Source of the DNA: a virus
IMG/VR virus record: IMGVR_UViG_3300026445_000027
Span: 64,001 to 128,000 of that record
DNA: 64,000 bases
Strand: one strand, 5' to 3'
Both the position numbers and the translations under genes were made by a program. The notes under the pieces were generated by a model that saw only the letters and a list, made by a program, of their open reading frames with translations, was not told the origin of the DNA and did not search any database. Shown here piece by piece: positions 38,926-62,930 of this stretch (position 1 is its first letter; the number at the start of each line of letters is the position of its first letter).

Positions 38926-40548
38926 TTAATCAATAATGGCATGCGTATGCATCAGTGTGTTCAAGTTCATCAGGTTGGTAGCCGTTTGCGAGGCATAGTC
39001 ACCTACCTTGAACGGATTGTTCCGATCCAACGTCTGGTGATGACCCCAACCACCATACGCTTTTGCTTTGGATTCGTTATCCACCAATACAACCGCATAG
39101 ATTTGGTCACCATCGAAGTCGGCGTTCTGGATCTTAACACCCAAGATTGGGAGTTTGAACGATTCGTCTTCGAGGTCCCGGTTTACCCCAAACTTAAAGG
39201 TACGGCAACTCAGGTATTCGATCGATGGATTTCGACCTGCCTGAATCAAGCACTTGTTGTTCTCTTCCATGTCGCGGAAGAACTCATCAATCAACGGATC
39301 GATATGATAAGCCGCCTGCTTAATGCGGGCCAGTGCTTGATACGGGGTGTGACCACGACGGTACAGATAGTTCTTGATGTGGATTTCCAACATCGAGATT
39401 GCCATTTTCCACGGCACTATCAGCAAGTCAGGATCAATTACACCAGTTTGCGACGTAATAATAGACCGGCCAGTGAAAGGAACCGATCCAGACGCGCAGT
39501 GTTTCCGGTTTAAGCCATGTTTCTCAAACAGCCCTTTCGGGTTGTTCGTCGACCGGTACTGCTCGGACAACATTACCAGAGTCTTGCCTACCGTCTCGGC
39601 GTTCTTCTGGAGTTCCGCTTCGGTCAGCTGATGGCAGATGTTGGACTTGAGAGAGTCCACCAACGTGACATACATAGCCGCCGTGATTGGCTGATACGAA
39701 TACGAGAACGTATCTTTACCAGATTTCTCCAGGATGGTGCTGTAGCGGTTTGGCACTTTCATGTAATACGGGAAGGCAATGTCTTTATTGCGCTCCCACA
39801 CTTCCATGTAAGCAGGACCCTCTTTGGTATCCTTGAAATACTTACGACCCGGGCCTATCAGGATGTACTCCATCAAGGCATCAGCATTACGGTAGAACGT
39901 GTTGATGTTGAACTCGGAAATACCCAAGGTTTCGAACATGTTGCGCAGAACGATACCGGTCGTGTTGCGGTTCTTGTCGACTTCTCGACGGTAATCCTTA
40001 TCTAGGAAATACCACGGCACACAGACTTTAGGGCTACCTATTGCGATGTTGCTGAAAAACGTTGCCAGAAACCCGAGGTTGACGAAACGGTCTACCCCTT
40101 CTGGTGCTTTCAGCCAGAGTTTGGTTTTATCTCCTTTATTAAGGAATTTCTCTGGTGGATCACCACATCGATCACAGATCTGCGGGCGGTCTTCGCGCAA
40201 GCGGAAGTTACCACGCAAATGTCCACACGAACACTTGGCAATAGTTTCGAAGCTATTACCACTGAACTCCATGCGGGTTAAACGTCCCAGGGTTTCCCGG
40301 TGTTCTTCCAGCTTGAGGTCCAGGTCATTCAGGTAGATCGGCCGCAGCTTGCTGGTGTCGTGCAGGTAGTCGTAGTTCTCGAAGTCCGGATAAAGGGGCT
40401 TGGAGTACCGCGGGTCATCCGTTACGATCCCACCGAAGGGAGCAGCAAACTTATTAAAGAAAGGCATCGGATCGATGCGTTCTTCACTGTAACTTGTCAG
40501 TAACGCAATGGCTTTGGCGTTTGACTCATTAATAGCAGGTAGTTCCAT
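38926..40548 (-). CDS. Non-virion RNAP beta' N-terminal catalytic subunit (gp55-like)
   Basis: NADFDGD, CSCG..CDRC Zn finger, GRSII, RNPSI. Confidence 0.9.
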   Translation of the reverse strand: MELPAINESNAKAIALLTSYSEERIDPMPFFNKFAAPFGGIVTDDPRYSKPLYPDFENYDYLHDTSKLRPIYLNDLDLKLEEHRETLGRLTRMEFSGNSFETIAKCSCGHLRGNFRLREDRPQICDRCGDPPEKFLNKGDKTKLWLKAPEGVDRFVNLGFLATFFSNIAIGSPKVCVPWYFLDKDYRREVDKNRNTTGIVLRNMFETLGISEFNINTFYRNADALMEYILIGPGRKYFKDTKEGPAYMEVWERNKDIAFPYYMKVPNRYSTILEKSGKDTFSYSYQPITAAMYVTLVDSLKSNICHQLTEAELQKNAETVGKTLVMLSEQYRSTNNPKGLFEKHGLNRKHCASGSVPFTGRSIITSQTGVIDPDLLIVPWKMAISMLEIHIKNYLYRRGHTPYQALARIKQAAYHIDPLIDEFFRDMEENNKCLIQAGRNPSIEYLSCRTFKFGVNRDLEDESFKLPILGVKIQNADFDGDQIYAVVLVDNESKAKAYGGWGHHQTLDRNNPFKVGDYASQTATNLMNLNTLMHTHAIID

Positions 40549-40636: not shown

Positions 40637-42697
40637 TTAGTACAGCGGGGTGAAGAAGTTCACCGACTGACCGGCTTGGACGATCGGGCTGTTGCTACCA
40701 GCAGCCACAGTAGTAGCCAGGCCGATACCAGGCGCGAACGCCAGGCGGTTGGTCTGGAAGCTACCCAGGTTGTTGGCGGCGTTCAGGTTGCCGATACCGT
40801 TCATCGCTTCGGCCATGGCAGCCATGAAGTCCGGAGCGAAGATCGCCGAGTTGCCGAAGGCGTTGATGTGGTTGTGACCGTCGAACAGCGAGGACGATTG
40901 CTCGATCCGCAGTTTCTGCGAACGTTGCTTGAAGTCTTCCTGCTGTGCGTTGCCGTAGACCAGACCCAGGTAGTTCTCGATCGACGCTTTCGCGGCAGCC
41001 GAGTTGCCAGGCTTGGCGTTGCAGATGAACATTTCGTCCACTTCTTGGGTGTTGATGTGACGCTCGCGGTCGTCCTTGCCACCAGGGGTAACGGCCAGAC
41101 CGTTGACAACGATGGAGTTGGACTGGATCAGGATCGGCTTGGTTTGAGCCGGGAACCAGCCGCGATCGGCTGCACGGTTCTTCGCGATGACTTCCGAGAA
41201 GCGCTTGTTGGTCATCGAGTCGATCAGTGCCACAACAACCTTGACAGCCTTGGCGTTGTCCGAACCCACCAGCTTGCGCATGAAGTTGATGATCGGAGCA
41301 TCCGGACCGTTCGAGATCAGGTTGATCTTGAACACCGCGTGGGCCGCCACGTTCTGACGGATCCAGTTGGTGACGAAGTCGGTGTCGTTGATGTTCTTCT
41401 CGTTCAGCGGCGGACGGATCTGAGGGTTCAGGATCTGCGCTGCGCCAGGCATGTTCTGCACCATCATCTGGATCCGGGTCTCCAGACCGGCCAGCGAACC
41501 ACGACCACCTACGTGTTGCTTACGCAGTGCGTCGGCGAAGACGTACTGGTTGTTGGTGGTCATCAGCGCGAACAGGCCGAAGAAGAACGGATACAGACCG
41601 CCGTTACCACGCATCATTTCACCGGCAGTGACGGTGTCGATGGTGATTTCCGGCTGCAGCGGACGGTAGGCACCTGGCCAGATGTTCTGACCCAGAGCGA
41701 ACACGCTGGAACCCATGAAGCTTTGCAGGGCCTGCATGTAGTCGTTGCTTTGAGCGCGGGCCATCATGCGAGCAGCGTATTCTTCGTACGCGGTACCGAT
41801 CAGCGACACGGTTGCGGTAACACGAGCGATCTCGCGGGTGTTGACCGGGTTGTACTGCTGGGTGTTGTTGCCGTTGGCGTTCATGGTAGTCACGATGACT
41901 TCCATGTTGGCTGGCGACAGGGTCTTGCCGTCGGTCAGACGTTCCTGGATGGCTTGTACGCGAGCTTCCGCAGTACGGTCTTTGCCGTAAGGGGAATCAG
42001 GTTCCAGCCATGGGGACGGAATGTCCATGCCCATTTCGACGATTTTCTCAGCACCGTATACCAGCAGGGCCTTCTCCCACTGACGGGCCAGGTACATGGC
42101 CAGGTAGTGCGGTTGGTCCTTGGTTTCGCCGGCTTGTGGATGCTTGAGCATTTCCATGTCGACAACCACCAGGTTGACGATTTCAACGGCGTTGGCGCCC
42201 TTGGTCTTGGCGGCCGAGTCGTAGTGCTCTTTCAGGCGATCAACGAACTGCTTGTTGATCTGTGCCGAAGGAGTGATCGGAATCGAAACGCGTTGCTGCT
42301 GGCCGGCGGCGACGTTGATGGTGATGTGCTCGGTACCGATCGAGTTGTCACGGTCCGAGAACAGCGCCGCCATGATGTACATCACACCTTCGATGACGGT
42401 GTAGAAGCCCAGGCCTGGCAGTTGTGCCGAGATGTTGGTGGTCAGGTGTTCGATGGTTGGTACGATCTGACGTTGCTTGGCGTCAGTGGTGGAAGTGTTA
42501 ATGTTCTTGTAGATGTGGTCGGTCAGGACCTCATATACTTCGGTAACGATCTTGAGGTTCCGGGTGTCCGAAACCAGGGAGTTCATACCGAAGAGTTGAG
42601 CCAGAAGACCGCTCGCATTGTTGGACGGGCCCGATGGCTTGCTACCACCGTTGTTGTCGGCCCAGCCACCGTATTCGTTTTCTTTATCAAGAGCCAT
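40637..42697 (-). CDS. chmA: Chimallin (phage nuclear shell protein)
   Basis: 686 aa; flexible N- and C-terminal segments ending FFTPLY; high-expression codon bias; directly upstream of the gp55-like gene. Confidence 0.75.
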   Translation of the reverse strand: MALDKENEYGGWADNNGGSKPSGPSNNASGLLAQLFGMNSLVSDTRNLKIVTEVYEVLTDHIYKNINTSTTDAKQRQIVPTIEHLTTNISAQLPGLGFYTVIEGVMYIMAALFSDRDNSIGTEHITINVAAGQQQRVSIPITPSAQINKQFVDRLKEHYDSAAKTKGANAVEIVNLVVVDMEMLKHPQAGETKDQPHYLAMYLARQWEKALLVYGAEKIVEMGMDIPSPWLEPDSPYGKDRTAEARVQAIQERLTDGKTLSPANMEVIVTTMNANGNNTQQYNPVNTREIARVTATVSLIGTAYEEYAARMMARAQSNDYMQALQSFMGSSVFALGQNIWPGAYRPLQPEITIDTVTAGEMMRGNGGLYPFFFGLFALMTTNNQYVFADALRKQHVGGRGSLAGLETRIQMMVQNMPGAAQILNPQIRPPLNEKNINDTDFVTNWIRQNVAAHAVFKINLISNGPDAPIINFMRKLVGSDNAKAVKVVVALIDSMTNKRFSEVIAKNRAADRGWFPAQTKPILIQSNSIVVNGLAVTPGGKDDRERHINTQEVDEMFICNAKPGNSAAAKASIENYLGLVYGNAQQEDFKQRSQKLRIEQSSSLFDGHNHINAFGNSAIFAPDFMAAMAEAMNGIGNLNAANNLGSFQTNRLAFAPGIGLATTVAAGSNSPIVQAGQSVNFFTPLY

Positions 42698-44390: not shown

Positions 44391-44729
44391 CTAGTAAGTT
44401 CCATCCGACCGGGCCGAACGCTTGTCCTCGAGCATACTCCAATAACGTTCTGGAGTTACCACAATAACTGCACCTAATTTACCGTTTATGAGTTTGAGGA
44501 ATTCCTCGATGTCCTCTTCTCTCTTAAAGTAAAGTTGGTGATCTTGATCACATTCGTAGTACTCCAAGTAAGTTTCCTTGGTTACCTCAAAACCGTATTC
44601 AAGCTTCTCTGCGGAGGGATCAAGAAAATATTCGTTGAGGGCGTCTTCATAATTGAAAGCGCCTTCAGCAGCGAACTCTAGTCCAGACCCCTTATGTTTG
44701 TAGTACGCCAGCGATGGATCAATGTTCAT
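44391..44729 (-). CDS. Accessory acidic protein
   Basis: ATG 44729 overlapping the polymerase stop region; AT-richer than neighbours. Confidence 0.6.
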   Translation of the reverse strand: MNIDPSLAYYKHKGSGLEFAAEGAFNYEDALNEYFLDPSAEKLEYGFEVTKETYLEYYECDQDHQLYFKREEDIEEFLKLINGKLGAVIVVTPERYWSMLEDKRSARSDGTY

Positions 44730-46824
44730 CGGACACCAGTCGTGTAGCTTTGCTGTTAAGGAAGTACAATCCGAGCGACTCAAGGATTGCGTAAATGGAT
44801 TTAAAGTTCTGCTGGATCAACAGACGCGAGTCCACGATAGGTAGTAGCTCTTTCGGTATGCCGCCCATCTCATCGATCATGTCTACTGGGATATAAACCG
44901 ATGTCAACTTAGGACGGGTTTCGATGTAAGCATGGAAGTTCTCTCCCCACACTTTGTCTTCTACCGAATCGAAATACTGTCGCATCTTAGACTTGTTGTG
45001 CAACGCCAAGTTGACCTTGTAAGCCCGGTATGGCAGTTCTGGTGCTTTGCCGTACTTAGGCGCAAACACACTCTCCCACAACTCGTGGTAGTAGTAGATG
45101 CTCGACTCTGGGTTAGAGTAAGCATTCTCAGCTTTGATACCGTTCTTAGTCAGCCAGGTGTAACCACCCTCGTCAATATCTTGGAACAGGGCACGTTCAA
45201 TGTCAGCGATCTCAGCCAACAGTTCAGCAGCATCCAACTGCTTCTTGTTGTAGATAGCATCGAGCACTTTACGCATAAGCGTGTTGGTGAACTCACGTAC
45301 CTTAAGTGCGATCTTAACCCCACGCAAGTGCACGCCTTTGAGCTCTAACTTAGGTTTGGGGTGCAAGATACCTTCCAGCATCAACTGCATTGCATAGTAG
45401 TGCTTGGACATGGAGGTCGTCACGTACGAACTGAACAAGTACTCGTTTTTCATGTTCAATCGGTACATGTACCGATTAGACACGTTCATGTTCTTACTGA
45501 GACGTGCGTGCTGGTCTACTGCGATGCAACGGATGAAATACGTCAGTGCGGCGTTGAAGCAGATACCACCCTGCTCGTCTTCTACGTAGTCGTCGATAAT
45601 CATGTCTACCGAGTAGATCATCGAGTCAGTGTCAGACGTCAGTACGTTCTCACGCACCAGCTCTTTCGCACTGAACACACCACTTGGTGGAATGTCTGCA
45701 CGGAAGAATGCGTTAATGAATGTACTCCACTTCTCTTCCAACGACAAGTGGTGGGTGTTGAGGAACGTCATCTGCTTGCTGTCGGGTTTCTTACCCAACT
45801 TGGTAATACAGAGGATCTCGTAGTCCGAGTTAGCCGGCTTGACACCAGTAGACGGATCGTAGTCCTCTGGCATCTCTGGCAGAGCACACCAATCGTTGAA
45901 GAACCGTTGCATCAGTTCCCGGTTGGTAGTGTACAGACCACGCAAGTCCATGGTGCACAGCAGGATGGTCAGCTCCAGTGGGCTCAGACCTTCCAAGAAC
46001 AACTGGATAGCACCCAAACGAGTCGGGTTCTTCCAGTAGTAACGAGCGCAACGACGAACCATGTCCATGACTTGGTCGACTGTCGCATAATTCATTGAGT
46101 ACTCGTTGATCACACGATGGATCAACTTACGGTCAGCAAACGCCAAAGTACTGAGGAACAGTTCCATTGTTGCGTCGAAGCTAACCAACAAACGGTTACC
46201 GGTAATCAGACGCTCGTTCAGCAAGTTAGCGGTCGAGGTTACAGTCCGGCAAGTACTGGTCAGAGTAGTGTGACCAGATTTGTTGTACAGCGGAGTACCA
46301 GACGAAGACATACCACCCGACTGGGCGTTGTTGAAAATCTTCAGTGCGTTCTGGATCTCGTCGAATGCTTTTGCTGCTTCTTGGTCGTTAACGCCAAGTG
46401 CTTCTTTTTTCTTACCCTTGTACAGACGACGGAATTCAATAAAGGTGTCTGTACCAATGGCGTTTACCGATTGTTCATCATCGGTGTGCTTGTACGCTAC
46501 AAAGGACGGGCTGAGGATCCAGTTATTATGTTCTACTGTCTGGAAGAACTCACTTGCTGGCATGACCGTCGGAACACGATCACCATACTTATTCTTTTTG
46601 AATACACCGAACTTGACTTCCTTGAAGCCGTTCTCGTTCGGGATAAAGACTTTCTCACATAACTCGAGTACTACGTTGTAATCGTACCCGTAAAGCACGC
46701 TAAGGTACATCGCAGCCTGAATGTGATACGACTTGATGATATCACGATTAGGCTTGTACTGCTCAGCCATGAAGGGGTTCTTCACTTCCTTGGCTGGTTT
46801 TAGGTTAGTTACTTGAGCAGTCAT
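44719..46824 (-). CDS. Family-B DNA polymerase palm/thumb subunit (gp50-like)
   Basis: Motif B KIFNNAQSG, motif C SDTDS, KHY, LKGV. Confidence 0.85.
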   Translation of the reverse strand: MTAQVTNLKPAKEVKNPFMAEQYKPNRDIIKSYHIQAAMYLSVLYGYDYNVVLELCEKVFIPNENGFKEVKFGVFKKNKYGDRVPTVMPASEFFQTVEHNNWILSPSFVAYKHTDDEQSVNAIGTDTFIEFRRLYKGKKKEALGVNDQEAAKAFDEIQNALKIFNNAQSGGMSSSGTPLYNKSGHTTLTSTCRTVTSTANLLNERLITGNRLLVSFDATMELFLSTLAFADRKLIHRVINEYSMNYATVDQVMDMVRRCARYYWKNPTRLGAIQLFLEGLSPLELTILLCTMDLRGLYTTNRELMQRFFNDWCALPEMPEDYDPSTGVKPANSDYEILCITKLGKKPDSKQMTFLNTHHLSLEEKWSTFINAFFRADIPPSGVFSAKELVRENVLTSDTDSMIYSVDMIIDDYVEDEQGGICFNAALTYFIRCIAVDQHARLSKNMNVSNRYMYRLNMKNEYLFSSYVTTSMSKHYYAMQLMLEGILHPKPKLELKGVHLRGVKIALKVREFTNTLMRKVLDAIYNKKQLDAAELLAEIADIERALFQDIDEGGYTWLTKNGIKAENAYSNPESSIYYYHELWESVFAPKYGKAPELPYRAYKVNLALHNKSKMRQYFDSVEDKVWGENFHAYIETRPKLTSVYIPVDMIDEMGGIPKELLPIVDSRLLIQQNFKSIYAILESLGLYFLNSKATRLVSDEH

Positions 46825-49505: not shown

Positions 49506-49573
49506 CTTTACGACCCCTCTCGTTAAACATAGTATCGCATATATATGGTCAACCAGTTAAAAACAACTATAAC

Positions 49574-49607
49574 CCTAAGGGTAGGAGCATTAGCTCCTAC
49601 CCTTAGG
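49574..49607. terminator. 15-bp hairpin after phuZ
   Basis: cctaagggtaggagc-atta-gctcctacccttagg. Confidence 0.75.
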
Positions 49608-49619
49608 TTACATCATAGC

Positions 49620-50615
49620 TTACAGCAAGACGCCGTTGGAATCAGCACCGACGGACATGTCTTTCTGTTGTACGTAGACGCCCTGGTTGGTGGACTTGAC
49701 CTTGGTCAGTTTTTCCAGTTGTTGCTCCAGGTCGGCTACGGATTCACCGTGGTCCAGCAGCATGTGCAGCTGGGTGGTGTCGGCTGGGGTTTGGATGCCC
49801 TTGCCGAAGATGCCGGTGGAACGGATCACAGTGCCGGAGAAAGCAGCAGTGATGTTCTCGGACTTGTCGAACAGGCTGACGGTAGCTACCGGGATTGGGC
49901 CCTTGTAGTTTTCCGGGTTGTCGTAGAAGCTGATGCGCGACAGTGCTGGTGGAACGCCGTAGTGCTTGGAGTAGTCCAGCACGTTGAGCAGGTCTTGGAA
50001 GTCTTGCTCTTCGTTGTCACCGTTGGCGAACAGCGAGAACAGCGAGATCTTCTGAACGACGTCGCGGTCGACTTGGCCGCGGGTCTTACCTGGCTCGTTG
50101 CGGAACTCCATGTAGTTGATCGGAGCGTTGAGCTGGTTCGGTTGGGTTTGAATCGCCATCGACTGCAGAGTCTTGATGGAGTTTTCCATTTCGACCTGGG
50201 AGGTGTGGTCGGTGATGATCGCCAGTACTGCCGAGTGGCCGTTCTGTTTCAGCCAGCGGATCACCAGGGTAGCCAGCAGGGCACCAGAACCACCAGCGCC
50301 GGAGCAGGCAACGATGTTGAACACGCCTGGGGTGTACTTGTTCATGGTGCGGTCAACGAACGGTACAGCCTCGGCGTAGTTGGTAGCTTTGACCTTACCG
50401 GAACCGTTGGCGAGCTTCTTCGGATCACCGCTCAGTGGGACGCGTTCCAGCGGGATGCCCAGTTCTTCTGGCAGGCGGTTGTTACCGGAGGCGTCGAGTG
50501 CCAGGTAAGTTGCCTTGGCCACCTTGTCCGAGTAGGTGCTGGCTTTCAACAGCTTAGCGATGTTGATACCGGCGCCGCCGCAGACGATGATGTTCAGCTC
50601 TGGTTTAGTCGACAT
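49620..50615 (-). CDS. phuZ: PhuZ phage tubulin
   Basis: CGGAGINI, GSGK, SGAGGSG tubulin signature, acidic/hydrophobic C-terminal tail. Confidence 0.9.
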   Translation of the reverse strand: MSTKPELNIIVCGGAGINIAKLLKASTYSDKVAKATYLALDASGNNRLPEELGIPLERVPLSGDPKKLANGSGKVKATNYAEAVPFVDRTMNKYTPGVFNIVACSGAGGSGALLATLVIRWLKQNGHSAVLAIITDHTSQVEMENSIKTLQSMAIQTQPNQLNAPINYMEFRNEPGKTRGQVDRDVVQKISLFSLFANGDNEEQDFQDLLNVLDYSKHYGVPPALSRISFYDNPENYKGPIPVATVSLFDKSENITAAFSGTVIRSTGIFGKGIQTPADTTQLHMLLDHGESVADLEQQLEKLTKVKSTNQGVYVQQKDMSVGADSNGVLL

Positions 50616-50690
50616 AAATTACTCTCTTTACCAAGTGGAAGTGTATTGCGAAATCATTTATGTAAAAGATCTGTAGATCCATACACGTAG

Positions 50691-50708
50691 GTAATATAGG
50701 CTTGTAAA
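50691..50708 (-). promoter_or_regulatory. Early promoter of phuZ
   Basis: TTTACAAGCCTATATTAC, with an exact TATATTAC core. Confidence 0.65.
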
Positions 50709-50899
50709 TTTATTACCCTACATAAAAAGGTTATCCAGTATAAATGCAAAAAAGAAAAGCATTACCTACCAGTACCTAAACCACATGGGCAAGGACTGGT
50801 AGGCTAAGCTTAACTACACTGGGATGCTATCAACTAACTAGGTCGAACCCTACAACGACCAGGTATGTGATTGAGCAATACAATATAAAGTGCAGTTAC

Positions 50900-51225
50900 A
50901 AAAAATAAAGTATAACCCCACCCAATACCCCTAGACCAGGCGACAGTGTCGGCTAGGATCAGGGCATTGAGCAGGGGGAGGTTTTCTTTGGTTGCCTCAA
51001 CAGCACAACCCAACCAGCGAATAACTAGGCAGACGATTACTGGTTGTTGCCTTAGGACCTCCTAACCTTTGGCAGGGGCAGGGGCTACAGCATGGGTCGA
51101 AGATACAAAGGAAGAGTGACGTACCAATTGAGAGGCACACCGGCCAGCAAACCTGACAACGGGTACATCACTCTGACTAGGCAAGCGAGGGCAAGCTTAG
51201 TCTACACGGCCGCTAGGTCCATGTT
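50900..51225 (-). ncRNA. Putative multi-hairpin RNA 3' of tRNA-Gln, ending in a terminator
   Basis: No credible ORF; 13-bp stem AGAGTGATGTACC/GGTACGTCACTCT and others; terminal hairpin plus TTTATTTTTT. Confidence 0.45.
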
Positions 51226-51302
51226 TGGAAGAGGTAGATGGATTCGAACCATCGCATGACAGGATCAAAACCTGTTGCCTTACCGGGCTTGGCTATACCT
51301 CT
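51226..51302 (-). tRNA. tRNA-Gln(UUG)
   Basis: AGAGGTA/TACCTCT acceptor, ACAGG-TT TTG AT-CCTGT anticodon arm, TTCGAAT T-loop, encoded CCA. Confidence 0.9.
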
Positions 51303-51307
51303 GTAAC

Positions 51308-51402
51308 TGGGGTGGTCTACGGGCTTTTACCGTACGTCGTGAGTAACAGGCCGGCCTCCAGACCTGTAACGGCTTTCTCAAAGTGGACCTTGGGAGAACA
51401 CC
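51308..51402 (-). ncRNA. tRNA-flanked structured RNA, copy 1
   Basis: GGTGTTC/GACCACC closing stem plus CCA; TACGG-TAAAAGC-CCGTA arm. Confidence 0.55.
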
Positions 51403-51409
51403 TTTGATT

Positions 51410-51485
51410 TGGCTCCACGTCCTGGATTCGAACCAGGGACCAACAGATTAACAGTCTGCTGCTCTACCGACTGAGCTAACGTGGA
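51410..51485 (-). tRNA. tRNA-Asn(GUU)
   Basis: Canonical 76-nt cloverleaf, CT GTT AA loop, CCA. Confidence 0.95.
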
Positions 51486-51497
51486 AGAAATATTGAC

Positions 51498-51609
51498 GGT
51501 CCATTCGGGCTTTTACCGCACTTACTCATGAGCTTGCGGCTCAAGGGGGCCCGACCGTCCGGGCGCCGAGTGCTTTCTTTACCTACCAGGGTTCCTTGAT
51601 CAATGGTCC
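51498..51609 (-). ncRNA. Structured RNA, copy 2 of the same motif
   Basis: CCATT/AATGG closing stem; AGAAAGC and CGGTAAAAGCCCG shared with copy 1. Confidence 0.5.
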
Positions 51610-51626
51610 TTTGTAGGTTAATATGT

Positions 51627-51758
51627 TGTTCGACCTGGTAAGGGGGAAGGGAGGCTCGTTTTATCCCCCGACTTGGACCCATGCACCGTATGGACTACTG
51701 GGCGGCTCCTTTTAGTGTAGCCCGGCTGTACCCTACCGTCTTTCCACCAGATCAAACA
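51627..51758 (-). ncRNA. Putative structured RNA closed by a 13-bp helix
   Basis: TGTTTGATCTGGT/ACCAGGTCGAACA, with G-U pairs on the minus strand only. Confidence 0.45.
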
Positions 51759-51774
51759 AACTCTTGAATAAAGT

Positions 51775-52063
51775 ATCCGTTCGCCACACCCGCGCTATTC
51801 GCATTCCGCAAGCGCGTCATGTACTTACATTCCCGTTGCCACGGATCACAGCAAAGCGCTCAGCGCGCTAGCACGGGAAAGAGTCCCCCTAGGACTTCTT
51901 GTGTGGGCTGCTTGCGCAATGCAAAGCCGCCCTGCGAGCCAACCTGACCGTCGGCTAAATGCCAGCAACAAGGTACCGTGACGAACCTTGTTGCCGGACT
52001 AGGTGTGTGTTCCTCAGCGCCCTTCGCCGCCCACAGCGCACCACCTTTGCTGAGGGACACACA
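51775..52063 (-). ncRNA. Putative hairpin-array RNA
   Basis: Consecutive long stems, e.g. TGTGTGTcCCTCAGC/GCTGAGGaACACACA and CCGGCAACAAGGT/ACCTTGTTGCTGG. Confidence 0.45.
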
Positions 52064-52065
52064 TT

Positions 52066-52205
52066 TGGTAGAGAGTACACGATTCGAACGTGTGGGCCCA
52101 TAAGTGTCGTTGGCCGACACCCTGAGCACATCCGGTTTCATGTAAGGCCGCCCTAGGGTACGCCCACAATCCTCCAGACTCCTTAAACCACTCGGACAAC
52201 TCTCT
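52066..52205 (-). ncRNA. 140-nt enlarged tRNA-like RNA
   Basis: Perfect acceptor stem, D-arm, T-arm and A-CCA end; about 85-nt central domain with no canonical anticodon arm. Confidence 0.75.
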
Positions 52206-52229
52206 GTTAACTTTGTATAACATAGGAAA

Positions 52230-52375
52230 TCGGGACGGATCCCAGGGTAGAGCCCTGGTCTTACGCCGTAAGTATACGACGCATTCTGGATCGCCCTCCG
52301 TCTTGAGGCTTTTCTTCCCTAAGTCTAGCCAACCCTGACGGCCGTTAGGCTAGAGAGTTAACCGCGACCCGGGTT
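52230..52375 (-). ncRNA. Putative structured RNA between tRNA-Leu and the tRNA mimic
   Basis: Stems GGTCGC/GCGATC, TCTAGCC/GGCTAGA, GCGTCGTA/TACGGCGT, CCAGGG/CCCTGG. Confidence 0.4.
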
Positions 52376-52385
52376 TATCCAAATA

Positions 52386-52471
52386 TGGTGCGAGAGACGG
52401 GCATCGAACCCGTATGGCCAGAAGCCGACAGATTTTAAGTCTGTTGTGTATACCAATTCCACCACACTCGC
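52386..52471 (-). tRNA. tRNA-Leu(UAA)
   Basis: 86 nt, long variable arm, CT TAA AA loop, A73, CCA; one U-U mismatch in the acceptor stem. Confidence 0.9.
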
Positions 52472-52884
52472 AGAACACACCGTTACATATCATAACCATG
52501 TGTAGTAAAAAGATAAGAGGAACTGCTCCAGATTGCGACATCCTTCACAATCCCTCTGTCACCTAGACCTCGGTAATAGTGTTAACCCTTTTACCGCCGT
52601 AAAGGCCCGCCTCATCAAACTCTCTGCTCACAACCATGCTGCCGGCCAGATCGAAATCCCAGGGCGGTCAGCACAGAAGAAGCCCAGTAGGAAAGTTTGG
52701 GTGACTTAGTGGGTTTGACGTTCCACTCATAGGTTCTGCTCAGAAAAGCTTGTCATCGCGATTCGTTGCATCATACAACCACCGGCTCCACCTTAAGGTT
52801 CCGGCTGATCTCCTCAATGGGAGAATTCGGTTTAGGCGTTAACAATCACACCTGTTGTATATAATGGATTATTGCAGTAACAAA

Positions 52885-54075
52885 TTAACCAATCGGACTA
52901 CCAGTGGCAGACTGCATGCCGTTTACTGGGGCCTCACCAGCTCTTATGATCAAATCACCTTTGGACTCAACGATGTATTTATTGGCTTCTTTGAAAGTGT
53001 TGCCCAGGTAGTAGAGACCGGTGCCGTTATAGCCGATGCCGTAGTACTGCATTTCACACTGATCGCTAGACTCAGCAGAGATCATTGCTGTAAGGTGTTC
53101 TTGTGTGATAGCTGAACTAACGTTTTCAACATAGACGGGGTTGGCGTGCTCACTGAACTCAGCAATGAAATTATCATCTACCAAAACAACCAACGTCGAC
53201 AGGCCGTTGATAAGCCACTTGCGATGCGACAGGATGATTACTTTACCTGGGTAGCGATTACCAGTTTTGGTGATCTCTTCACGAATAAGGTTTTTGGTAG
53301 TTTTGCTGAAATTGCCGAAAACTGTGTTATAGTACTTGAGCTGATCCGGGTCATCCAGTACAAAAGGGCGTTTGACGCTAGGGATATCTTCTTCTGGTCC
53401 TGGGTCCCTTGCAGGCTTAGCATTAGCCTTAACATAGTTAGCTTCCAACATCGCCAGTTTGCTTTCTGGTATCAGCCCACCTTCGCGAAGCTCTTTGATC
53501 ATTTCCTTTGTGGCGTAAACGTTGTATTGCTGAATACGTTTGGCGGTTAACGAGTAAGCGTCGAAGAAGCTACCGTCCAGGTACGCACCAACGTTACCAT
53601 GGAAATTAGCCAGGATGGTACCGGAGTCGTACTCTTCTTCTGACTCAGCCACGCCACCTGGGGCCAGGCCTGCTTTAGCCAATGCTTCGCGCAGGTTAGG
53701 GTTAGCACTGAACATAATCTCACGTGCCATTGCCGCGATGCGAACTGGATCAGCGCCGTTCAGCAATGCGGGCAGATCAAAATCTACCGCACCTGGGTCG
53801 TCAGTGAGGGACTCTTTGTAGAGACCACCCATACCAGGGTACTCGAGGTCTTTCTCCGTGATCTTGGAGATAGTGTCCCCGGATGCGTTCATGATGTAAA
53901 CGTTGCCAGTGATCGGATAAGACCGATTCTTACCTGGCAGTGCATGTTGGATTACCAGCCCGTGGTTTCCATTTGGTGGGGTACCTAAGTTGACTTTGAT
54001 GTCAACCGGTTCTTCTACAACCAGCATGCGGAAACTCTTGTTGTCGCGGTCCATCATTTTGATAATGAGGTTCAT
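52885..54075 (-). CDS. Paralogue-array protein D (shared N-terminal domain)
   Basis: 396 aa; YPITGNVYIMNASGDTISKI. Confidence 0.7.
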   Translation of the reverse strand: MNLIIKMMDRDNKSFRMLVVEEPVDIKVNLGTPPNGNHGLVIQHALPGKNRSYPITGNVYIMNASGDTISKITEKDLEYPGMGGLYKESLTDDPGAVDFDLPALLNGADPVRIAAMAREIMFSANPNLREALAKAGLAPGGVAESEEEYDSGTILANFHGNVGAYLDGSFFDAYSLTAKRIQQYNVYATKEMIKELREGGLIPESKLAMLEANYVKANAKPARDPGPEEDIPSVKRPFVLDDPDQLKYYNTVFGNFSKTTKNLIREEITKTGNRYPGKVIILSHRKWLINGLSTLVVLVDDNFIAEFSEHANPVYVENVSSAITQEHLTAMISAESSDQCEMQYYGIGYNGTGLYYLGNTFKEANKYIVESKGDLIIRAGEAPVNGMQSATGSPIG

Positions 54076-54184
54076 GTAAACTACTCGTATTAGTTAGTGG
54101 TTTGTCTTACTGGTATTGCGTACGTGCTATGTTGCCTAAGGTCAGAGCCGCCCCTGACCTTAGTATTGTTTTGCTCGGTGTAAA

Positions 54185-55027
54185 TTAACTAAAGGTAACC
54201 GGTCGGATATCAAAAACTTCATTATCCAAATTGACGGTAAAGGCTTGTTTGTTAAGAAGGCTGTCGACTCTCCAGCCTTTGTCTGGAATATACTCAAGCC
54301 CATGGGACTCTTTTTCTTTGGCCGAAAGTGTATCGACTGTACGGCACCCTAGTTCAGTAACTACGATATGCGGCTGAGATGCACACTCCATGATACCTAA
54401 CGTTTTGTCAAAATGAGGATTTACATACAAAATCCATGGTCCATTAGGTGGCAAATCTATCATCCACTGGAACATTTGGGTAAATGGATCAACATGATCT
54501 GCGCTAATCAATTCGTTCAACTGATCAAGGCTGTTGCTAGGGAGGAATTGCAATTTACCAAGACCCAAGTAAAGAGTCGGTGAAGCTGCACGTAAATCTT
54601 TAGCACTATTCCAAACGGTAGCTGGATCACTCCCCTGGACACTCCCACCTGGATTCAATGGAGGGAACTGCTTAGGTATCTCACTACGCTTATTCAACTC
54701 TTCCCAGTCAATGGGGCGGTCGCCACTCATTGCTTCCCGGATAGGTTGTAATACTGCTTCGGTCTGTTCTTCAATACGCACCGGAGCCATAAGCTTTTCA
54801 TAGCTTACTTCACTTAACACCAACCCGTCAGGATTCATGATGGTGACGTCACCAGTTACCGGAATGACTTCAGAACGGAAGTCACCAAAACCCTCGACTA
54901 CCACCAATGGGGTATTAGACTTGGTCGCAGCAAATACAGTCACACGACCAGCATGTAGCACAGGGATCAAATGGAACCCGACTTTATCCGAGTGCATTAC
55001 CTTGATAATAGTTACTGGTTTAATCAT
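54185..55027 (-). CDS. Paralogue-array protein C
   Basis: 280 aa; IPVTGDVTIMNPDGLVLSEV. Confidence 0.7.
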   Translation of the reverse strand: MIKPVTIIKVMHSDKVGFHLIPVLHAGRVTVFAATKSNTPLVVVEGFGDFRSEVIPVTGDVTIMNPDGLVLSEVSYEKLMAPVRIEEQTEAVLQPIREAMSGDRPIDWEELNKRSEIPKQFPPLNPGGSVQGSDPATVWNSAKDLRAASPTLYLGLGKLQFLPSNSLDQLNELISADHVDPFTQMFQWMIDLPPNGPWILYVNPHFDKTLGIMECASQPHIVVTELGCRTVDTLSAKEKESHGLEYIPDKGWRVDSLLNKQAFTVNLDNEVFDIRPVTFS

Positions 55028-55641
55028 TACGCGGGCTCCCCTATCAATTTCTTAGCTTCTTCTTCAGACAAGTTAAATGTAAAACCGAAATTAGTTGCTA
55101 CTGGTTCGCGAGTCTTTCTGTTCACCCCGATAAATGAGTAAGCTAACTCCGGAGTGGATGGGTCGATAAAGATTTCGTGGTCATGGCACGATGCGTAGAA
55201 AGCCTGATCGGATCCTAGGAGCACTATTGGACTTTCTTCACCCATGTGCGGCTTGGGGATAAATACCGAAATAGGGTTTCCGCAGTAGAGGGTGGCGCGG
55301 GTTCTTACTTTCCAGATGCCATTTGTAGAGACAGTCAGTCGTTTTTCCAACAGCTCCATCCAGAACTCTTTGCTTCCTGGTGCGGTGGGAGTGGGAGGGT
55401 ACACCAGATCGGAAAGTTTCACTAACTGGATCAAGGCACCTGTGTGAGACTTGATCTCTACGTCACCACGCAGTTGGTAAACGGCGGTATTTTCCTCCAA
55501 CACCCCGTCTATTTCAACAACCCCTTTCTGGATAGTCAAGGTAGCATGACCTCGGCCAAACTTCATGACCTCTTGACTACCCACTTGGAGGACAGTACCT
55601 ACTGAACCATAGCTAGTAAACAACGTTACGATAAGACTCAT
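55027..55641 (-). CDS. Paralogue-array protein B
   Basis: 204 aa; YQLRGDVEIKSHTGALIQLV. Confidence 0.7.
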   Translation of the reverse strand: MSLIVTLFTSYGSVGTVLQVGSQEVMKFGRGHATLTIQKGVVEIDGVLEENTAVYQLRGDVEIKSHTGALIQLVKLSDLVYPPTPTAPGSKEFWMELLEKRLTVSTNGIWKVRTRATLYCGNPISVFIPKPHMGEESPIVLLGSDQAFYASCHDHEIFIDPSTPELAYSFIGVNRKTREPVATNFGFTFNLSEEEAKKLIGEPA

Positions 55642-55892
55642 GACGCGCCCTCTACACTATAGGCCGTGACAGTTTGGATTACTTCACCGTTTGCATTACA
55701 GATCTCCACTTCCCCATCAAAGCCGTAGGCGGTAATGCTGTTACTAGATCCATTAACTGAAGGGATACGTACATGTGGATCGGAATTGGTGTACCGACCG
55801 AATTCAATACGCTCGCCAACTTTAACCGTCAGTACGTTTTTCACAACGCCTTTGCTGTTCTTAACGATTACCAACATTGCCAACTGACTCAT
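55638..55892 (-). CDS. Paralogue-array protein A (domain only, 84 aa)
   Basis: Start reassigned to ATG 55892 (GGAG RBS); YGFDGEVEICNANGEVIQTV. Confidence 0.7.
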   Translation of the reverse strand: MSQLAMLVIVKNSKGVVKNVLTVKVGERIEFGRYTNSDPHVRIPSVNGSSNSITAYGFDGEVEICNANGEVIQTVTAYSVEGAS

Positions 55893-55924
55893 ACTTACTC
55901 CAATTATTAAAATGCGTGTATAAA

Positions 55925-55951
55925 CCCTACCTAGCTTATAGCTAGGTAGGG
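55925..55951. terminator. 12-bp hairpin after the protease gene
   Basis: ccctacctagct-tat-agctaggtaggg. Confidence 0.6.
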
Positions 55952-55957
55952 GTACCA

Positions 55958-56608
55958 TTAAACGGCTTCTACTACGATCGGGTCTTCGACTTCTGGCTTC
56001 GGATGGGTGGAAGCTTCACCAGGAGTAGTCTCCGGCTTAACCGCTTCATCCTTGGCGTCCTTCGGATCTTTGATCACCAGGTGGGCAGGCCGTACCGATT
56101 TCACTTCTGGTACTGGCGGGAACACGAATACGTCCACGTCACCACCGGACATCACATCCAGCTTACAGGCAGTTTTAACCGCCTTAGCCGCATTCTGCCC
56201 CACGCACATAGCAGCCAGTGCAAAACGGCTACCGCTACCGCTGGAGTATGGAACGTTTACCGGCAGCAGGAACTGCTCTTCACCACGCTTCTCTTTGTTG
56301 GCGTAGATGCTCCAGGCCAGTACCTCGTGGCGCTCAGTAATGAGGATCGCCTCGAAGTCCAGTTCCTCGTCGTGCGTTACCCGTGTACGGTAGTCGATAC
56401 CCTTACGCAGGTACTCCTTGATGTACTCGATGGCATGTGCCTGGCCACACACGCCGAATGCGATGATGCGTACGCCAGCTGCTTCCCAGTACTCGGTAGC
56501 TGCGTCTGGCTTGTGGATCTTCTTGAAGTTACCTGGCATGGCCATCCAGCCTTTAGTAGCCTGACCATCACTTGCCATCATTCCGTCGCTAACTGCGATA
56601 GTAGTCAT
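55958..56608 (-). CDS. HslV/proteasome-beta-like Ntn protease
   Basis: N-terminal (M)TTIA nucleophile, ASDGQAT, KKI, GSGSRFA, D..SGG. Confidence 0.8.
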   Translation of the reverse strand: MTTIAVSDGMMASDGQATKGWMAMPGNFKKIHKPDAATEYWEAAGVRIIAFGVCGQAHAIEYIKEYLRKGIDYRTRVTHDEELDFEAILITERHEVLAWSIYANKEKRGEEQFLLPVNVPYSSGSGSRFALAAMCVGQNAAKAVKTACKLDVMSGGDVDVFVFPPVPEVKSVRPAHLVIKDPKDAKDEAVKPETTPGEASTHPKPEVEDPIVVEAV

Positions 56609-56779: not shown

Positions 56780-57030
56780 GAAGATAGAAGTATAATAATT
56801 AATATATATTTTTCTAATTTTTGACACATTCTATGTCTATTTAAATTTAGTAATATAGTAAAGGGGGCTGCGCCCCCTTTACTAGTCATCTATGCTAAAG
56901 CATAAAGGCTATGAGTCTCGTCATCTACTAACGTAGATTCCTCGGCCTAAGCATCCTCCCCGGTAAGGCTATTCACTCCGTTCCGTTCGCCGAAGGCTCA
57001 CTTCACTACGTTCATAACCTTACCACCCCT
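56780..57030. other. AT-rich tract plus hairpin cluster, candidate origin or ssDNA signal
   Basis: Very AT-rich 56790-56860 next to several hairpins with cGNAg loops. Confidence 0.35.
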
Positions 57031-59660: not shown

Positions 59661-62600
59661 TTATGCTGCAAGTTTACGTTCAAGCATCCGTTTAGCGCGT
59701 TCGATCTTGGCCCCTTCAAGCAGGCTGTCGACAGTAAGCAGCTTCGCGGTTTCTGCTGGGAGCAACTTAGTTAACTTACGGATCTCAGCTTCCAGACGCA
59801 ATGCCAGGATGTTGTCATTGGTTTTCAGCAGTTCTTCAGTAAGCCCGTTGATTTTCAACCTAATGTTGTCAAAGAACGCCACAATACTCGGGTCCATCTT
59901 GGTCTCTTCTTTCTGCTTACCTACGTCCAGTAGGTTTTGCGTGTCAGTAAGAGCCAGTGCAGGCATGATCCCGTAGTACGGTTTGTTACCACCCAACTTG
60001 ATGAACCAGTACGTCAGCAACCAAGCAATTACCAAGTCATCGTGTTGCTTAGAGTCGTGGTCAATGCGATCGCCCTTAGTCCGCAGGTTGATCAACTCAT
60101 CAGCCAGTTTGTCGTAAGCAATGCCATACCCCGTTACAGCAACTGCTTCCTGAATCAAACCATACAGCACCTTACGCGACGACGCCGAAGTGTTGAAGCC
60201 GAACAAGTGTTTGTATTTCAGGTAGAAGTTTTTGTCCCGGTACGAGAACTTGGTGTTCTGCACTGCTTCCAGTTCCTTGGAGTGCAATGCGGGTTCGTGG
60301 TAGACCTGGTTGAATATCCGCTGGAATGGGTCCATCCCTTTGGACGGCAGCAGGATAAGTAAGCTGTCGATCATGTGGTGAGCATAGTTACGCTCGATTA
60401 CCAGCACACTGTTCTGCAACACTTGCAGCATGTCCACGATAATCGCTGTAACGTCGTCCAGCATAGCCAGTGGGTAACGACCTACCCCAACGACCTTGCC
60501 GGTCTTCATCGAGCGGATAATCAGTGTACAGGCGTCCTTGTTGATGGCCGACGACGTATCCACCCCAATGATGAAGTGGTCGTTGTGTTCCTTCTTGGAC
60601 ATTTCCATCAACTGCTCTTGCGTAACAAAGAAGTCTACGAACAGACCACTGTCACGGTATTCCTTACTCCAGAGTTTCTCCCGCTTAACGTTGTTGATGG
60701 CTTCACGAGTCAAGTCATCGAACAGCCGGTTCTCACCGTCCTCCACCCACATTAACAACAAGTCGATCTTGGCCTTAGCAAGACTGAGGTTGAGCTCGTC
60801 GATTGTCCGTTTGACCCAGTCTTTGTTTTTACCCAACTGCATGTAGTTGTAAACCATGGACACCGACGGTGCGGTAGTCTTAGTTGGGCTAGCACGAATC
60901 AAGCGGTCTTTGAGGTGGGACTCACTGTACGAGTCAAAGAACTTCTCACGCCACTCGGTAGCAGACATTAACTTCTCGAACATGAATGCACCACTTGGAT
61001 GCAGGGTCGTGTTCGGAGTAGTGATATATCCAATACCGTATGGCTGGCCGTTCTCCCGACACAGTTCCATCTCAGTAAGTGCAGATGGCATCGCGCCGTT
61101 GATGATCGCCTCAATCCAGGAGATATACCCTGGTTCATCGAGGAACGTGGTGCCTACCGTTAAACCACGACCAACGTCACCCGCGGCATCCTGGCCGATC
61201 TGTGGAACGTTAATCGTTAGTACGTTTACCTTGTCCTCACCAAACGCCCGGTAAGTTAAGTAGGTACCTGCGTCTTTGTCCTTGTACGTCGAGTTAACCA
61301 GGTAGTTCGGAATACAACTCCGCATCCGTTTAACTGCGTCAATGAACTGCGCACGGTTATCCGACTTCAGCGTAATCACATGGGTCTTGTAGCCACGACC
61401 GTTGATATACGTTAACCAGAAGTTAATGACCTGGACCGACACCGTGTTGTGGGTGACGATAAAGTCATCGGTGATATACAGGTGCTGTTCGTTATCCACC
61501 TCAATGCAGGTACACTCTTGATCACCACTAAATTCAATCTTGGTGATGAAAAGCTGGTTGGGTACGTTAGGTTCTTCAGCCTCGTTGAACTTGTAGTACT
61601 TGCAACCTTCTGGCAGAGTGATTACCACACCTTCATCAGTGGCGGTAGCAGTACCACCGAGTCCCCGTGCCAGATATTGGAGTTGATTTACGATTACCCG
61701 GTTAGAGGTCTTATACAGCAAACCCTTTGGGGTAGGGTGGGCTAGATCCAGAAACGCGTGTAACACGTCACTGCGGTCCTCTATACAGCCTTCCAGGTAG
61801 TCCTGTGGCAGACCCTGTGCGTGAGTGATGCTCAGGTCGTTATCATTGGACATGCGCAGGTAGGCACTGTCACCTTGGATCACCAGTTTCAGGTGTTTAG
61901 GCAACTTGTTGCTCAGGTACCAAGTAGCTTTCTGACTGATCTTACCCAGATGGATTAACTTACCATCGTTAGGCGCAGCAAACAGCAGACCCATCACATA
62001 AGGACGGATCATACGTTTCTTTTTGGGTGGTCCTTCTTCAGGCTCGATCAGCGGTAGTTCAATCTTGATACCTTTATTGATACGTCGTTTAATCTGGGAC
62101 GTGGTGTACTCATCCCAGATAGGGTCTACGTTGACCTTACGGTTATGGTCGCCAACCGACCACAGGTGTTCTGCCCCAGCTTCCGTGGTACGTCCATCCG
62201 AGCAGGTAACCAAGTAGGTACGTTTCTTACCTTGTGGGTGTACACCAATGACCGTGGTCTCGTTACCATAGCGGTCAATGATCTCATCACCAACCCGCAG
62301 GTCACCGATATTAACCCAATGGTCTTGCGGACGACCGTAAGCATTTTCTTTACGCTTCTTACGGACTTTCTTGGTATTCGGTTGGTACTTGCCCTGCTGA
62401 CGGGGCATGATCATGTAACTAGTAATGTGGTTCAGGTAGTTCCAGATAAAACTGATGTTACCCCGGTTAGCCTGGAAATAACGATCCGCCCGTACCTTAC
62501 AGACTTCACGTAGGAAATACCAGAAGTTAGCCCGGCACTCCTCCATGATCCACTGACGTTGTTCGTTAGTGAGATCCTCGGCATAAGGGTCCACACCACG

Positions 62601-62930
62601 CAACATTGGGTTGTTCAATTGCAGACAGAAGAAATAGTTCTTGATACCTTGCCGTTTGAAAATCTCGGCAGTACGCAGGAAACTATGGTTCTTAGTCTTG
62701 TTGTCAGGGATTGCACCGTAACGAGGAAAGTCCTTGAGGAACCTCACCGTCTTAATACTGTGCAGACTGTCCTCGTTGAAATGAGCCATTAAGGTCTCAT
62801 CATCAGTACGTGAGTGGCTGTCGATCCGTTTGGCCTGATCGTCGATCAGTTCCTTAGGTAATGTGTGAGCACCCAGGTATTCCTGCAGCTTCTTAGCTGA
62901 CTCGAGGAGCTTGGAATAATCAGAAGACAC
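59661..62930 (-). CDS. terL: Terminase large subunit (intein-containing)
   Basis: Walker A PRQQGK|T split by the intein, Walker B FLDE, TTPN, nuclease GVD...ERN...HDD. Confidence 0.9.
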   Translation of the reverse strand: MSSDYSKLLESAKKLQEYLGAHTLPKELIDDQAKRIDSHSRTDDETLMAHFNEDSLHSIKTVRFLKDFPRYGAIPDNKTKNHSFLRTAEIFKRQGIKNYFFCLQLNNPMLRGVDPYAEDLTNEQRQWIMEECRANFWYFLREVCKVRADRYFQANRGNISFIWNYLNHITSYMIMPRQQGKYQPNTKKVRKKRKENAYGRPQDHWVNIGDLRVGDEIIDRYGNETTVIGVHPQGKKRTYLVTCSDGRTTEAGAEHLWSVGDHNRKVNVDPIWDEYTTSQIKRRINKGIKIELPLIEPEEGPPKKKRMIRPYVMGLLFAAPNDGKLIHLGKISQKATWYLSNKLPKHLKLVIQGDSAYLRMSNDNDLSITHAQGLPQDYLEGCIEDRSDVLHAFLDLAHPTPKGLLYKTSNRVIVNQLQYLARGLGGTATATDEGVVITLPEGCKYYKFNEAEEPNVPNQLFITKIEFSGDQECTCIEVDNEQHLYITDDFIVTHNTVSVQVINFWLTYINGRGYKTHVITLKSDNRAQFIDAVKRMRSCIPNYLVNSTYKDKDAGTYLTYRAFGEDKVNVLTINVPQIGQDAAGDVGRGLTVGTTFLDEPGYISWIEAIINGAMPSALTEMELCRENGQPYGIGYITTPNTTLHPSGAFMFEKLMSATEWREKFFDSYSESHLKDRLIRASPTKTTAPSVSMVYNYMQLGKNKDWVKRTIDELNLSLAKAKIDLLLMWVEDGENRLFDDLTREAINNVKREKLWSKEYRDSGLFVDFFVTQEQLMEMSKKEHNDHFIIGVDTSSAINKDACTLIIRSMKTGKVVGVGRYPLAMLDDVTAIIVDMLQVLQNSVLVIERNYAHHMIDSLLILLPSKGMDPFQRIFNQVYHEPALHSKELEAVQNTKFSYRDKNFYLKYKHLFGFNTSASSRKVLYGLIQEAVAVTGYGIAYDKLADELINLRTKGDRIDHDSKQHDDLVIAWLLTYWFIKLGGNKPYYGIMPALALTDTQNLLDVGKQKEETKMDPSIVAFFDNIRLKINGLTEELLKTNDNILALRLEAEIRKLTKLLPAETAKLLTVDSLLEGAKIERAKRMLERKLAA
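61446..62387 (-). mobile_element. Class-3 intein (314 aa) with degenerate LAGLIDADG endonuclease
   Basis: Starts YQP, block B EHLW, block F CTCIEV, block G VTHN followed by +1 Thr. Confidence 0.85.

Follow-up and report, generated by a model that had tools for sequence, protein, structure and literature searches.

Four genes are arranged head to tail along the minus strand of a 64,000-nucleotide stretch of viral DNA, hereafter the window, which covers bases 64001-128000 of the IMG/VR record IMGVR_UViG_3300026445_000027 (142,778 bp, completeness estimate 60%). The genes, designated A, B, C and D, stand between the gene of an HslV-family peptidase and a tRNA/RNA island upstream of the tubulin gene phuZ, in what is, judged by its gene content, an uncultured, chimallin-encoding jumbo phage of the nucleus-forming type. 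Their products begin with a common domain of about 80 residues, referred to here as the N-domain, which is the whole protein in A and is followed by different C-terminal regions in B, C and D. A sequence-only reading of the window had described four tandem open reading frames (ORFs) of 84, 204, 280 and 396 amino acids with a common N-terminal domain, and had proposed a constant docking module with variable cargo, acting as adaptors or as a hetero-oligomer. All four ORFs are present on the minus strand with these lengths, and the peptides quoted in that reading are all found in the translations. This report follows the array from its gene boundaries to the family to which it belongs, its predicted fold and self-association, and the explanations that may account for it.

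The four genes of the array

Gene A (55638-55892, minus strand) encodes 84 amino acids consisting of the N-domain alone, and belongs to an A-type subfamily whose orthologues have 85-88 residues. Gene B (55027-55641, minus strand) encodes 204 amino acids, with the N-domain at residues 1-81 (55399-55641), a linker that reads PTPTAPG and a C-terminal region spanning roughly 115 residues. Gene C (54185-55027, minus strand) encodes 280 amino acids, in which the N-domain (residues 1-80, 54788-55027) is followed by a helix at residues 76-100, a disordered linker and an alpha/beta module named Y. Gene D (52885-54075, minus strand), the longest with 396 amino acids, carries the N-domain at residues 1-80 (53836-54075), a region at 81-228 and a C-terminal module at 224-374.

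Between A and B the stop and start codons overlap by 4 nt, and between B and C by 1 nt, an arrangement that would fit co-expression of these genes. Genes C and D are separated by a gap of 109 nt, inside which lies a 10-bp G+C-rich hairpin (54136-54163). At 55915-55953, in the interval that separates the end of the HslV gene from gene A, an inverted repeat with a stem of about 11 bp was read from the sequence; on the minus strand it is followed by TTTAT. For gene A, the 84-amino-acid form is preferred over a 106-amino-acid ORF because the same 84-amino-acid ORF occurs in L003, a close relative contig that is 94-98% identical, because the orthologues of 85-88 residues begin at the same residues, and because a GGAG stands eight bases upstream. 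Compared with L003, the ratio of nonsynonymous to synonymous substitution rates is 0.09-0.30 across all four genes (0.14 for A); A to D are therefore real coding genes, and they are under purifying selection.

A common N-terminal domain

Aligned over their approximately 80 N-terminal residues, the four proteins share five invariant columns, including the pattern G-x-V-x-I-x(4)-G. Pairwise BLASTP is significant for C and D only (E 9e-6); the B-D comparison is marginal (E 0.012) and A against B gives no match. Profile comparison reaches further. Hidden Markov models (HMMs) were built from three domains at a time and run against 461 stop-to-stop frames of the window of at least 50 amino acids, and the omitted domain was always the first non-training match, with E values of 1.2e-5 for A, 5.7e-5 for B, 3.1e-4 for C and 1.4e-4 for D, while the next-best frame had an E value of at least 0.27. 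These values are far beyond chance, and the ranking establishes, at the level of sequence, that all four genes are homologous in the N-domain, as the sequence-only reading had held. The domain boundaries in B rest on the four-way alignment and the leave-one-out HMM, with BLASTP as a further line for D and the structure model described below for C. Across the whole 142.8-kb record no fifth copy of the N-domain was found.

An undescribed family in nucleus-forming phages

A search of 1.84 billion cluster representatives with the family profile, at E <= 0.001, returned 32 representative proteins of 84-667 amino acids. In 31 of the 32 proteins the match spans the domain and runs from residue 1 to about residue 83. 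The exception is P0035, whose best stretch covers only the second half of the domain, a whole-domain alignment being otherwise obtained.

Among cultured phage genomes, the N-domain HMMs identified gp34 of 201phi2-1 (228 amino acids; E 2e-9 and 3.5e-20), gp196 of Ea35-70 (379 amino acids; E 4e-8) and gp97 of EL (98 amino acids; E 6e-6), one copy per phage, all three being chimallin-encoding phages. No match was found in phiKZ, Goslar, OBP, Joad or FishSpeaker. Of the three, gp34 (E 9e-13) and gp196 (E 1.7e-8) fall into phrog_10337, and gp196 also into phrog_10807. When A to D are themselves scanned against phrog_10337, D reaches an E value of 0.066, which falls short of significance, and A, B and C give nothing; the link between the array and phrog_10337 is indirect, running through window-derived HMMs that reach gp34 and gp196. 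With EL gp97 joined to them by HMM, these phrog_10337 members have the same N-terminal domain as A to D.

A tree of the domains resolves an A-type (standalone), a B-type, a C-type and a D-type group, with a fifth group formed by gp34, gp97 and gp196; support is 96/87 for the C clade and 98/94 for the D clade. Since each gene falls into a separate subfamily with orthologues elsewhere, A to D are, on the evidence of this tree, old paralogs and not recent duplicates, and form a paralog set of an undescribed protein family in nucleus-forming jumbo phages. Subfamilies A to D, like the four-gene array itself, have been seen only in uncultured soil and compost jumbo phages (one relative protein carries the NCBI label "compost metagenome"), in contrast to the single copy of the fifth subfamily in the cultured phages.

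The family is uncharacterized: no Pfam model covers it, and what PHROGs offer is a group of unknown function. A Pfam scan of 35 relatives at E <= 0.01 gave no match save one stray, and single-sequence scans of A to D against Pfam, PHROGs and NCBIfam gave nothing usable. Neither megablast nor tblastn, run with the region and with D, matched any of 50,697 phage records, the ESM Atlas gave no usable match for D or for the N-domain of C, and a literature search found no paper on the family.

A conserved locus with exchanged C-terminal modules

The same gene order is seen in G001, a complete 229-kb IMG/VR phage whose D-type protein is only about 25% identical. At this locus (L026) the order is terminase, phrog_3179, HslV, N-domain genes of 80 and 239 amino acids, a phrog_839 gene, N-domain genes of 82 and 586 amino acids, tRNA-Asp, tRNA-Trp, tRNA-Asn, PhuZ and DNA polymerase; elsewhere in the 229-kb genome no N-domain gene was found. 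The phrog_839 gene that stands within this array (8129-8629 of L026, plus strand) encodes 166 amino acids of unknown function and has no N-domain. The gene for gp196 in Ea35-70 likewise lies upstream of tRNA-Asn and PhuZ, and in EL and FishSpeaker HslV adjoins PhuZ with no array between them. By the layouts of G001 and Ea35-70, the array is a conserved feature of a clade, in which it fills a variable slot within a core block that is itself conserved.

The C-terminal regions were compared by all-against-all BLASTP of everything past residue 78. By this sequence comparison they are mosaics, in which modules have been inserted, lost or swapped among relatives. Module Y of C (residues 157-280, 54188-54559, minus strand), predicted as alpha/beta with high confidence for most of its length, is found in P0007, P0008, P0010, P0012 and P0014-16. 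The protein P0007 equals C with a 115-residue module X inserted ahead of Y, P0009 and P0013 have X without Y, P0010 and P0012 have both, and P0011 and P0026 carry other modules. Residues 81-228 of D are common to most D-type proteins, its last module (224-374) recurs only in P0022, and for the C-terminal region of B no relative was detected save P0033. Profile comparison by hhalign gives a probability of 50% (E 1.6e-4) for X against Y and 80% for Y against the C-terminus of P0026, which suggests that X, Y and the modules of P0011 and P0026 are distant relatives (best pairs 50-80%). A common origin of all C-terminal modules was considered and rejected: the relation is weak and confined to the pairs X-Y, Y-P0026, X-P0011 and P0011-P0026, and the profiles of the B and D C-termini are unrelated to the rest.

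Proline-rich linkers, which the sequence-only reading had remarked upon, are visible in the translations at residues 80-88 of B, 116-127 of C and about 221-233 of D. In C the Pro/Gly-rich disordered linker extends over residues 120-146 (54590-54670, minus strand). It contains the motif SVQGSDP, kept as [SA][IV]QG.[ED]. in C-type relatives amid an otherwise variable disordered stretch, and this motif may mark a protease site or serve as a docking peptide. The C-terminus of A reads YSVEGAS, which is similar to the C-type linker motif. Taken together, the N-terminal domain in 31 of 32 relatives and the mosaic C-termini uphold the idea of a constant module with variable cargo, whereas the adaptor role attached to it in the sequence-only reading gains no direct support.

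Predicted fold and self-association

Protein C, the sole one of the four folded with an alignment (20 rows), was modeled by AlphaFold2 with a mean predicted local distance difference test (pLDDT) of 84.3. The model places seven beta strands at residues 6-74 (pLDDT >90), a helix at 76-100, a disordered segment at 120-146 (pLDDT <50) and an alpha/beta module at 157-280, with pLDDT >90 for most of module Y. Modeling without an alignment gave a pLDDT of 37 and was useless. In the PDB, Foldseek with the C model gave the ATP synthase epsilon subunit as its best match (E 0.066), which is not above noise, and VIA-align gave best Z scores of 4.9 in a wide search and 4.7 in a second look, none above noise. 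These PDB lists were filled by the N-domain, and the C-terminal modules were barely sampled in them. Against BFVD, the first Foldseek match was the uncharacterized 228-residue 201phi2-1 protein B3FK09 (E 1.6e-4), which has the same length and phage as gp34 and may be that protein. Lower matches were uncharacterized proteins of Phabio, MadMel and Goslar, together with several 70-90-residue proteins of unrelated phages. The N-domain is thus predicted to be a seven-strand beta domain with no convincing relative in the PDB.

Complex prediction was carried out for three copies of A, using a custom-made alignment of 32 rows and three controls with unrelated partners. The interface score ipSAE (interaction prediction score from aligned errors) was 0.79, 0.79 and 0.75 for the three-copy set, and the best control reached 0.00. 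Partner pLDDT was at least 88 and contacts agreed between runs to at least 93%. In calibration, 20 of 30 solved homo-pairs attained this mark, as did 1 of 23 single chains, counts that apply only approximately to A, which was predicted with a custom-made alignment and in three copies where the calibration used two. The predicted interface is asymmetric, with residues 16-22 of one copy facing residues 23-32 of the next. The two outer copies (1 and 2) are not in contact, so that the model is an open head-to-tail arc; such an arrangement implies an assembly beyond the trimer, either a ring or a filament. The N-domain is accordingly modeled as self-associating head to tail. Of the oligomer proposed in the sequence-only reading, self-association is what the prediction favors (ipSAE 0.79 against 0.00), and it does so for a homo-oligomer of A alone.

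A proposed self-associating handle and its alternatives

The explanation that we prefer, at a probability of about 0.45, is that the N-domain is a self-associating handle that tethers shuffled modules, that A is its cargo-free form, and that the proteins are probably non-virion accessory proteins. It builds on the constant N-terminal position of the domain, the shuffling of the modules and the conserved synteny, each of which is established by the sequence comparisons above. The predicted seven-strand domain at the start of each protein most likely self-associates head to tail, with strand 2 of one subunit pairing with strand 3 of the next in an open arc that implies a larger ring or filament, and it would be the assembly handle that all four proteins have in common. 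Cargo-free subunits would be supplied by A, and B, C and D would hang their different C-terminal modules from the assembly through flexible Pro/Gly-rich linkers. The proteins would probably be made in the infected cell as accessory, non-virion components, and their modules may bind or act on variable targets. Non-virion status is judged probable because the record of 201phi2-1 gp34 does not bear the note "identified as virion protein by mass spectrometry" that its neighbors gp27-32 carry. Mixed A-D assemblies, the non-virion status and any role in host interaction are inferred.

Several points weigh against this explanation. The oligomer is a prediction, structure predictors easily pair the edges of beta sandwiches, and the complex prediction covered the homo-oligomer of A only. 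The missing virion note of gp34 is negative evidence from one record. For the C-terminal modules no function is readable, as there is no Pfam, NCBIfam or PHROG annotation and fold matches have Z <= 4.9. Additionally, cultured chimalliviruses carry one copy each, and a mixed scaffold is therefore not the general mode of the family. A bolder form of the proposal, which we hold to be distinctly unlikely, is a mixed ring or filament in infected cells, in which A would set the spacing and B, C and D would display shuffled effectors as a phage-encoded multivalent scaffold. Such a scaffold may act at the nuclear shell or on the products of the adjacent RNA island, and it would be a self-assembling structure not known before from nucleus-forming phages.

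The single copy in cultured phages can also be read in another way. The domain must then work without paralog partners, and it might dock each paralog singly onto one shared partner of phage or host origin, for instance the nuclear shell, the ribosome or an RNA polymerase, thereby delivering different modules to it. The constant N-terminal position of the domain and the shuffled cargo agree with such docking, to which we give appreciable weight while considering it on the whole unlikely. The partner is hypothetical, the standalone 84-residue form, which is kept in several phages, would be a cargo-free competitor, and the strong self-interface predicted for A is not needed by a protein that docks singly. 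The virus particle is another candidate place of attachment. If A to D were virion proteins, the N-domain would be a particle anchor of the podovirus tailspike head-binding or capsid-targeting type, and the C-termini would be exchangeable fiber tips or injected cargo. The layout of four tandem genes with one shared N-domain is reminiscent of multi-tailspike phages, and weak fold matches to the N-terminal domain of the P22/Sf6 tailspike recur (1lkt_A at Z 3.7, root-mean-square deviation 3.7 over 59 residues; also 8tvr, 7sg7 and 2vnl; other P22/Sf6 chains at Z 2.9-3.3; Foldseek E 0.15 to 0.56). However, a Z below 4 lies within the noise described for the tool, the C-terminal parts are small (115-320 residues), and the predicted oligomer is an open head-to-tail arc where no closed trimer is seen. 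The array also lies amid non-structural genes (HslV, tRNAs, PhuZ and DNA polymerase), and gp34 is without the virion annotation already mentioned; anchoring in the virion is thus improbable.

Two further alternatives draw on the neighbors of the array. In two divergent phages, that of the window and G001, the N-domain genes lie directly downstream of HslV and co-oriented with it, and A to D might be substrate adaptors or regulators of the HslV-like peptidase in a targeted-proteolysis module. The peptidase is the sole obvious client for the adaptors suggested in the sequence-only reading, and in cultured phages it does not co-occur with the family, which tells against that suggestion. The phage 201phi2-1 has gp34 and no HslV match, phiKZ has an HslV-like gene and no N-domain match, the two genes are about 113 kb apart in Ea35-70 and about 85 kb apart in EL, and the HslV-PhuZ border of EL and FishSpeaker is free of any array. 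A site of insertion that one clade has in common accounts best for the adjacency, and a role with HslV is slightly harder to credit than anchoring in the virion. On the other side of the array, the 2-kb tRNA/RNA island directly downstream would suit a ring-forming RNA binder similar to TRAP (MtrB) that acts on it. A four-sequence profile of the N-domain matched four TRAP chains colinearly and over nearly their full length, and the predicted edge-strand head-to-tail contact is of the kind that builds rings. The PDB profile E values of 0.23-0.35 are not significant, though, the probability from hhalign is 4.4% when a nine-sequence profile is compared with the TRAP segment, no Pfam TrpBP match appears at E <= 1 in single-sequence hmmscan, and TRAP is absent from every fold-search list. 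In TRAP, the Lys and Arg of the KVRG motif are RNA-contact residues. The aligned columns read P-V-T in C, P-I-T in D, Q-L-R in B and G-F-D in A, with Arg in B only, so these contacts are not conserved. On the profile values, the hhalign probability and the RNA-contact residues the lead was rejected, and a TRAP-like function is the most improbable of those considered here.

Relation to known systems and significance

A constant N-terminal handle with swappable C-termini is a familiar design, known from the internal proteins of T4 with their capsid-targeting sequence, from multi-tailspike sets and from polymorphic toxins. The array has in common with these modular systems the tandem paralogs, the constant N-terminal part, the linkers and the exchanged C-terminal modules, without any sequence relation or convincing fold relation to them. 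Their handle may be a short cleaved signal, whereas that of A to D is a folded beta domain of 80 residues predicted to self-associate, and evidence of virion packaging or toxicity is lacking for A to D. With TRAP/MtrB, the N-domain shares a small all-beta architecture of about 75 residues and seven strands, with subunit contacts through edge strands (predicted in the N-domain). TRAP forms a ring of 11 or 12 subunits; for the N-domain, three copies of A were modeled, and they form an open head-to-tail arc.

Nucleus-forming jumbo phages are a major model of phage cell biology, yet functions have still to be assigned to most of their accessory genes. The family described here is compact and testable, being built on a single domain with at least five subfamilies and with cargo modules that are shuffled. 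Its members in cultivable phages (201phi2-1 gp34, EL gp97 and Ea35-70 gp196) make self-assembly and location directly testable. If it is true that the domain polymerizes and displays variable modules, it would represent a new kind of phage-built intracellular scaffold. If the domain does not polymerize, the family would still show cleanly how domains are shuffled in a variable island that adjoins conserved core genes.

Genomic setting and minor observations

The assignment of the source to the nucleus-forming jumbo phages rests on PHROG matches to chimallin, RNA polymerase, PhuZ and other genes. On the minus strand of the window lie the multisubunit RNA polymerase beta subunit (38926-40548), chimallin, the protein of the nuclear shell (40637-42697), DNA polymerase (44719-46824), the tubulin PhuZ (49620-50615), the HslV-family peptidase (55958-56608) and the large terminase (59661-62930), each recognized by its PHROG match. 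The genes for chimallin, PhuZ and the multisubunit RNA polymerase are thus found together on one contig, which is the context of a chimallivirus. Even the nearest cultured relatives are remote: PhuZ shares 39-41% identity with its counterparts in Shewanella phage FishSpeaker, Erwinia phage Joad and Pseudomonas phage EL, and for HslV the identity with the EL homologue is about 40%.

The HslV gene, directly upstream of the array and co-oriented with it, forms the conserved left border. Its product starts M-TTIAV and would therefore have an N-terminal Thr once Met is removed; about 45 residues past the PHROG match form a tail that is acidic and Pro/Lys-rich. Between gene D and phuZ, the island of about 2.1 kb (50700-52880) carries tRNA-Gln, tRNA-Asn and tRNA-Leu, and no convincing protein gene was found in this interval. 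A 381-residue ORF antisense to phuZ (49545-50690, plus strand) has a Val/Gly/Leu-rich low-complexity translation and is almost certainly not a gene.

The word TATATTAC is a predicted phiKZ-type promoter word (PMC7058600, Table 2). Its copies lie on the minus strand, at 56850-56857 and in the region 50691-50708, and none was found inside the array. The first copy immediately follows a G+C hairpin and precedes the HslV gene by about 240 nt. The second, 76 nt ahead of phuZ, forms part of TTTACAAGCCTATATTACCTACGTG, a sequence similar to the longer consensus that PMC7058600 Table 2 gives for 201phi2-1. Two matches per 64 kb are not above chance, and the promoter reading of TATATTAC was rejected. 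The large terminase has 1089 residues, with its PHROG terminase matches confined to residues 9-333 and with DnaC-like and primase-like matches overlapping residues 202-333; this length is normal for the clade, since the EL and L026 homologues are equally long.

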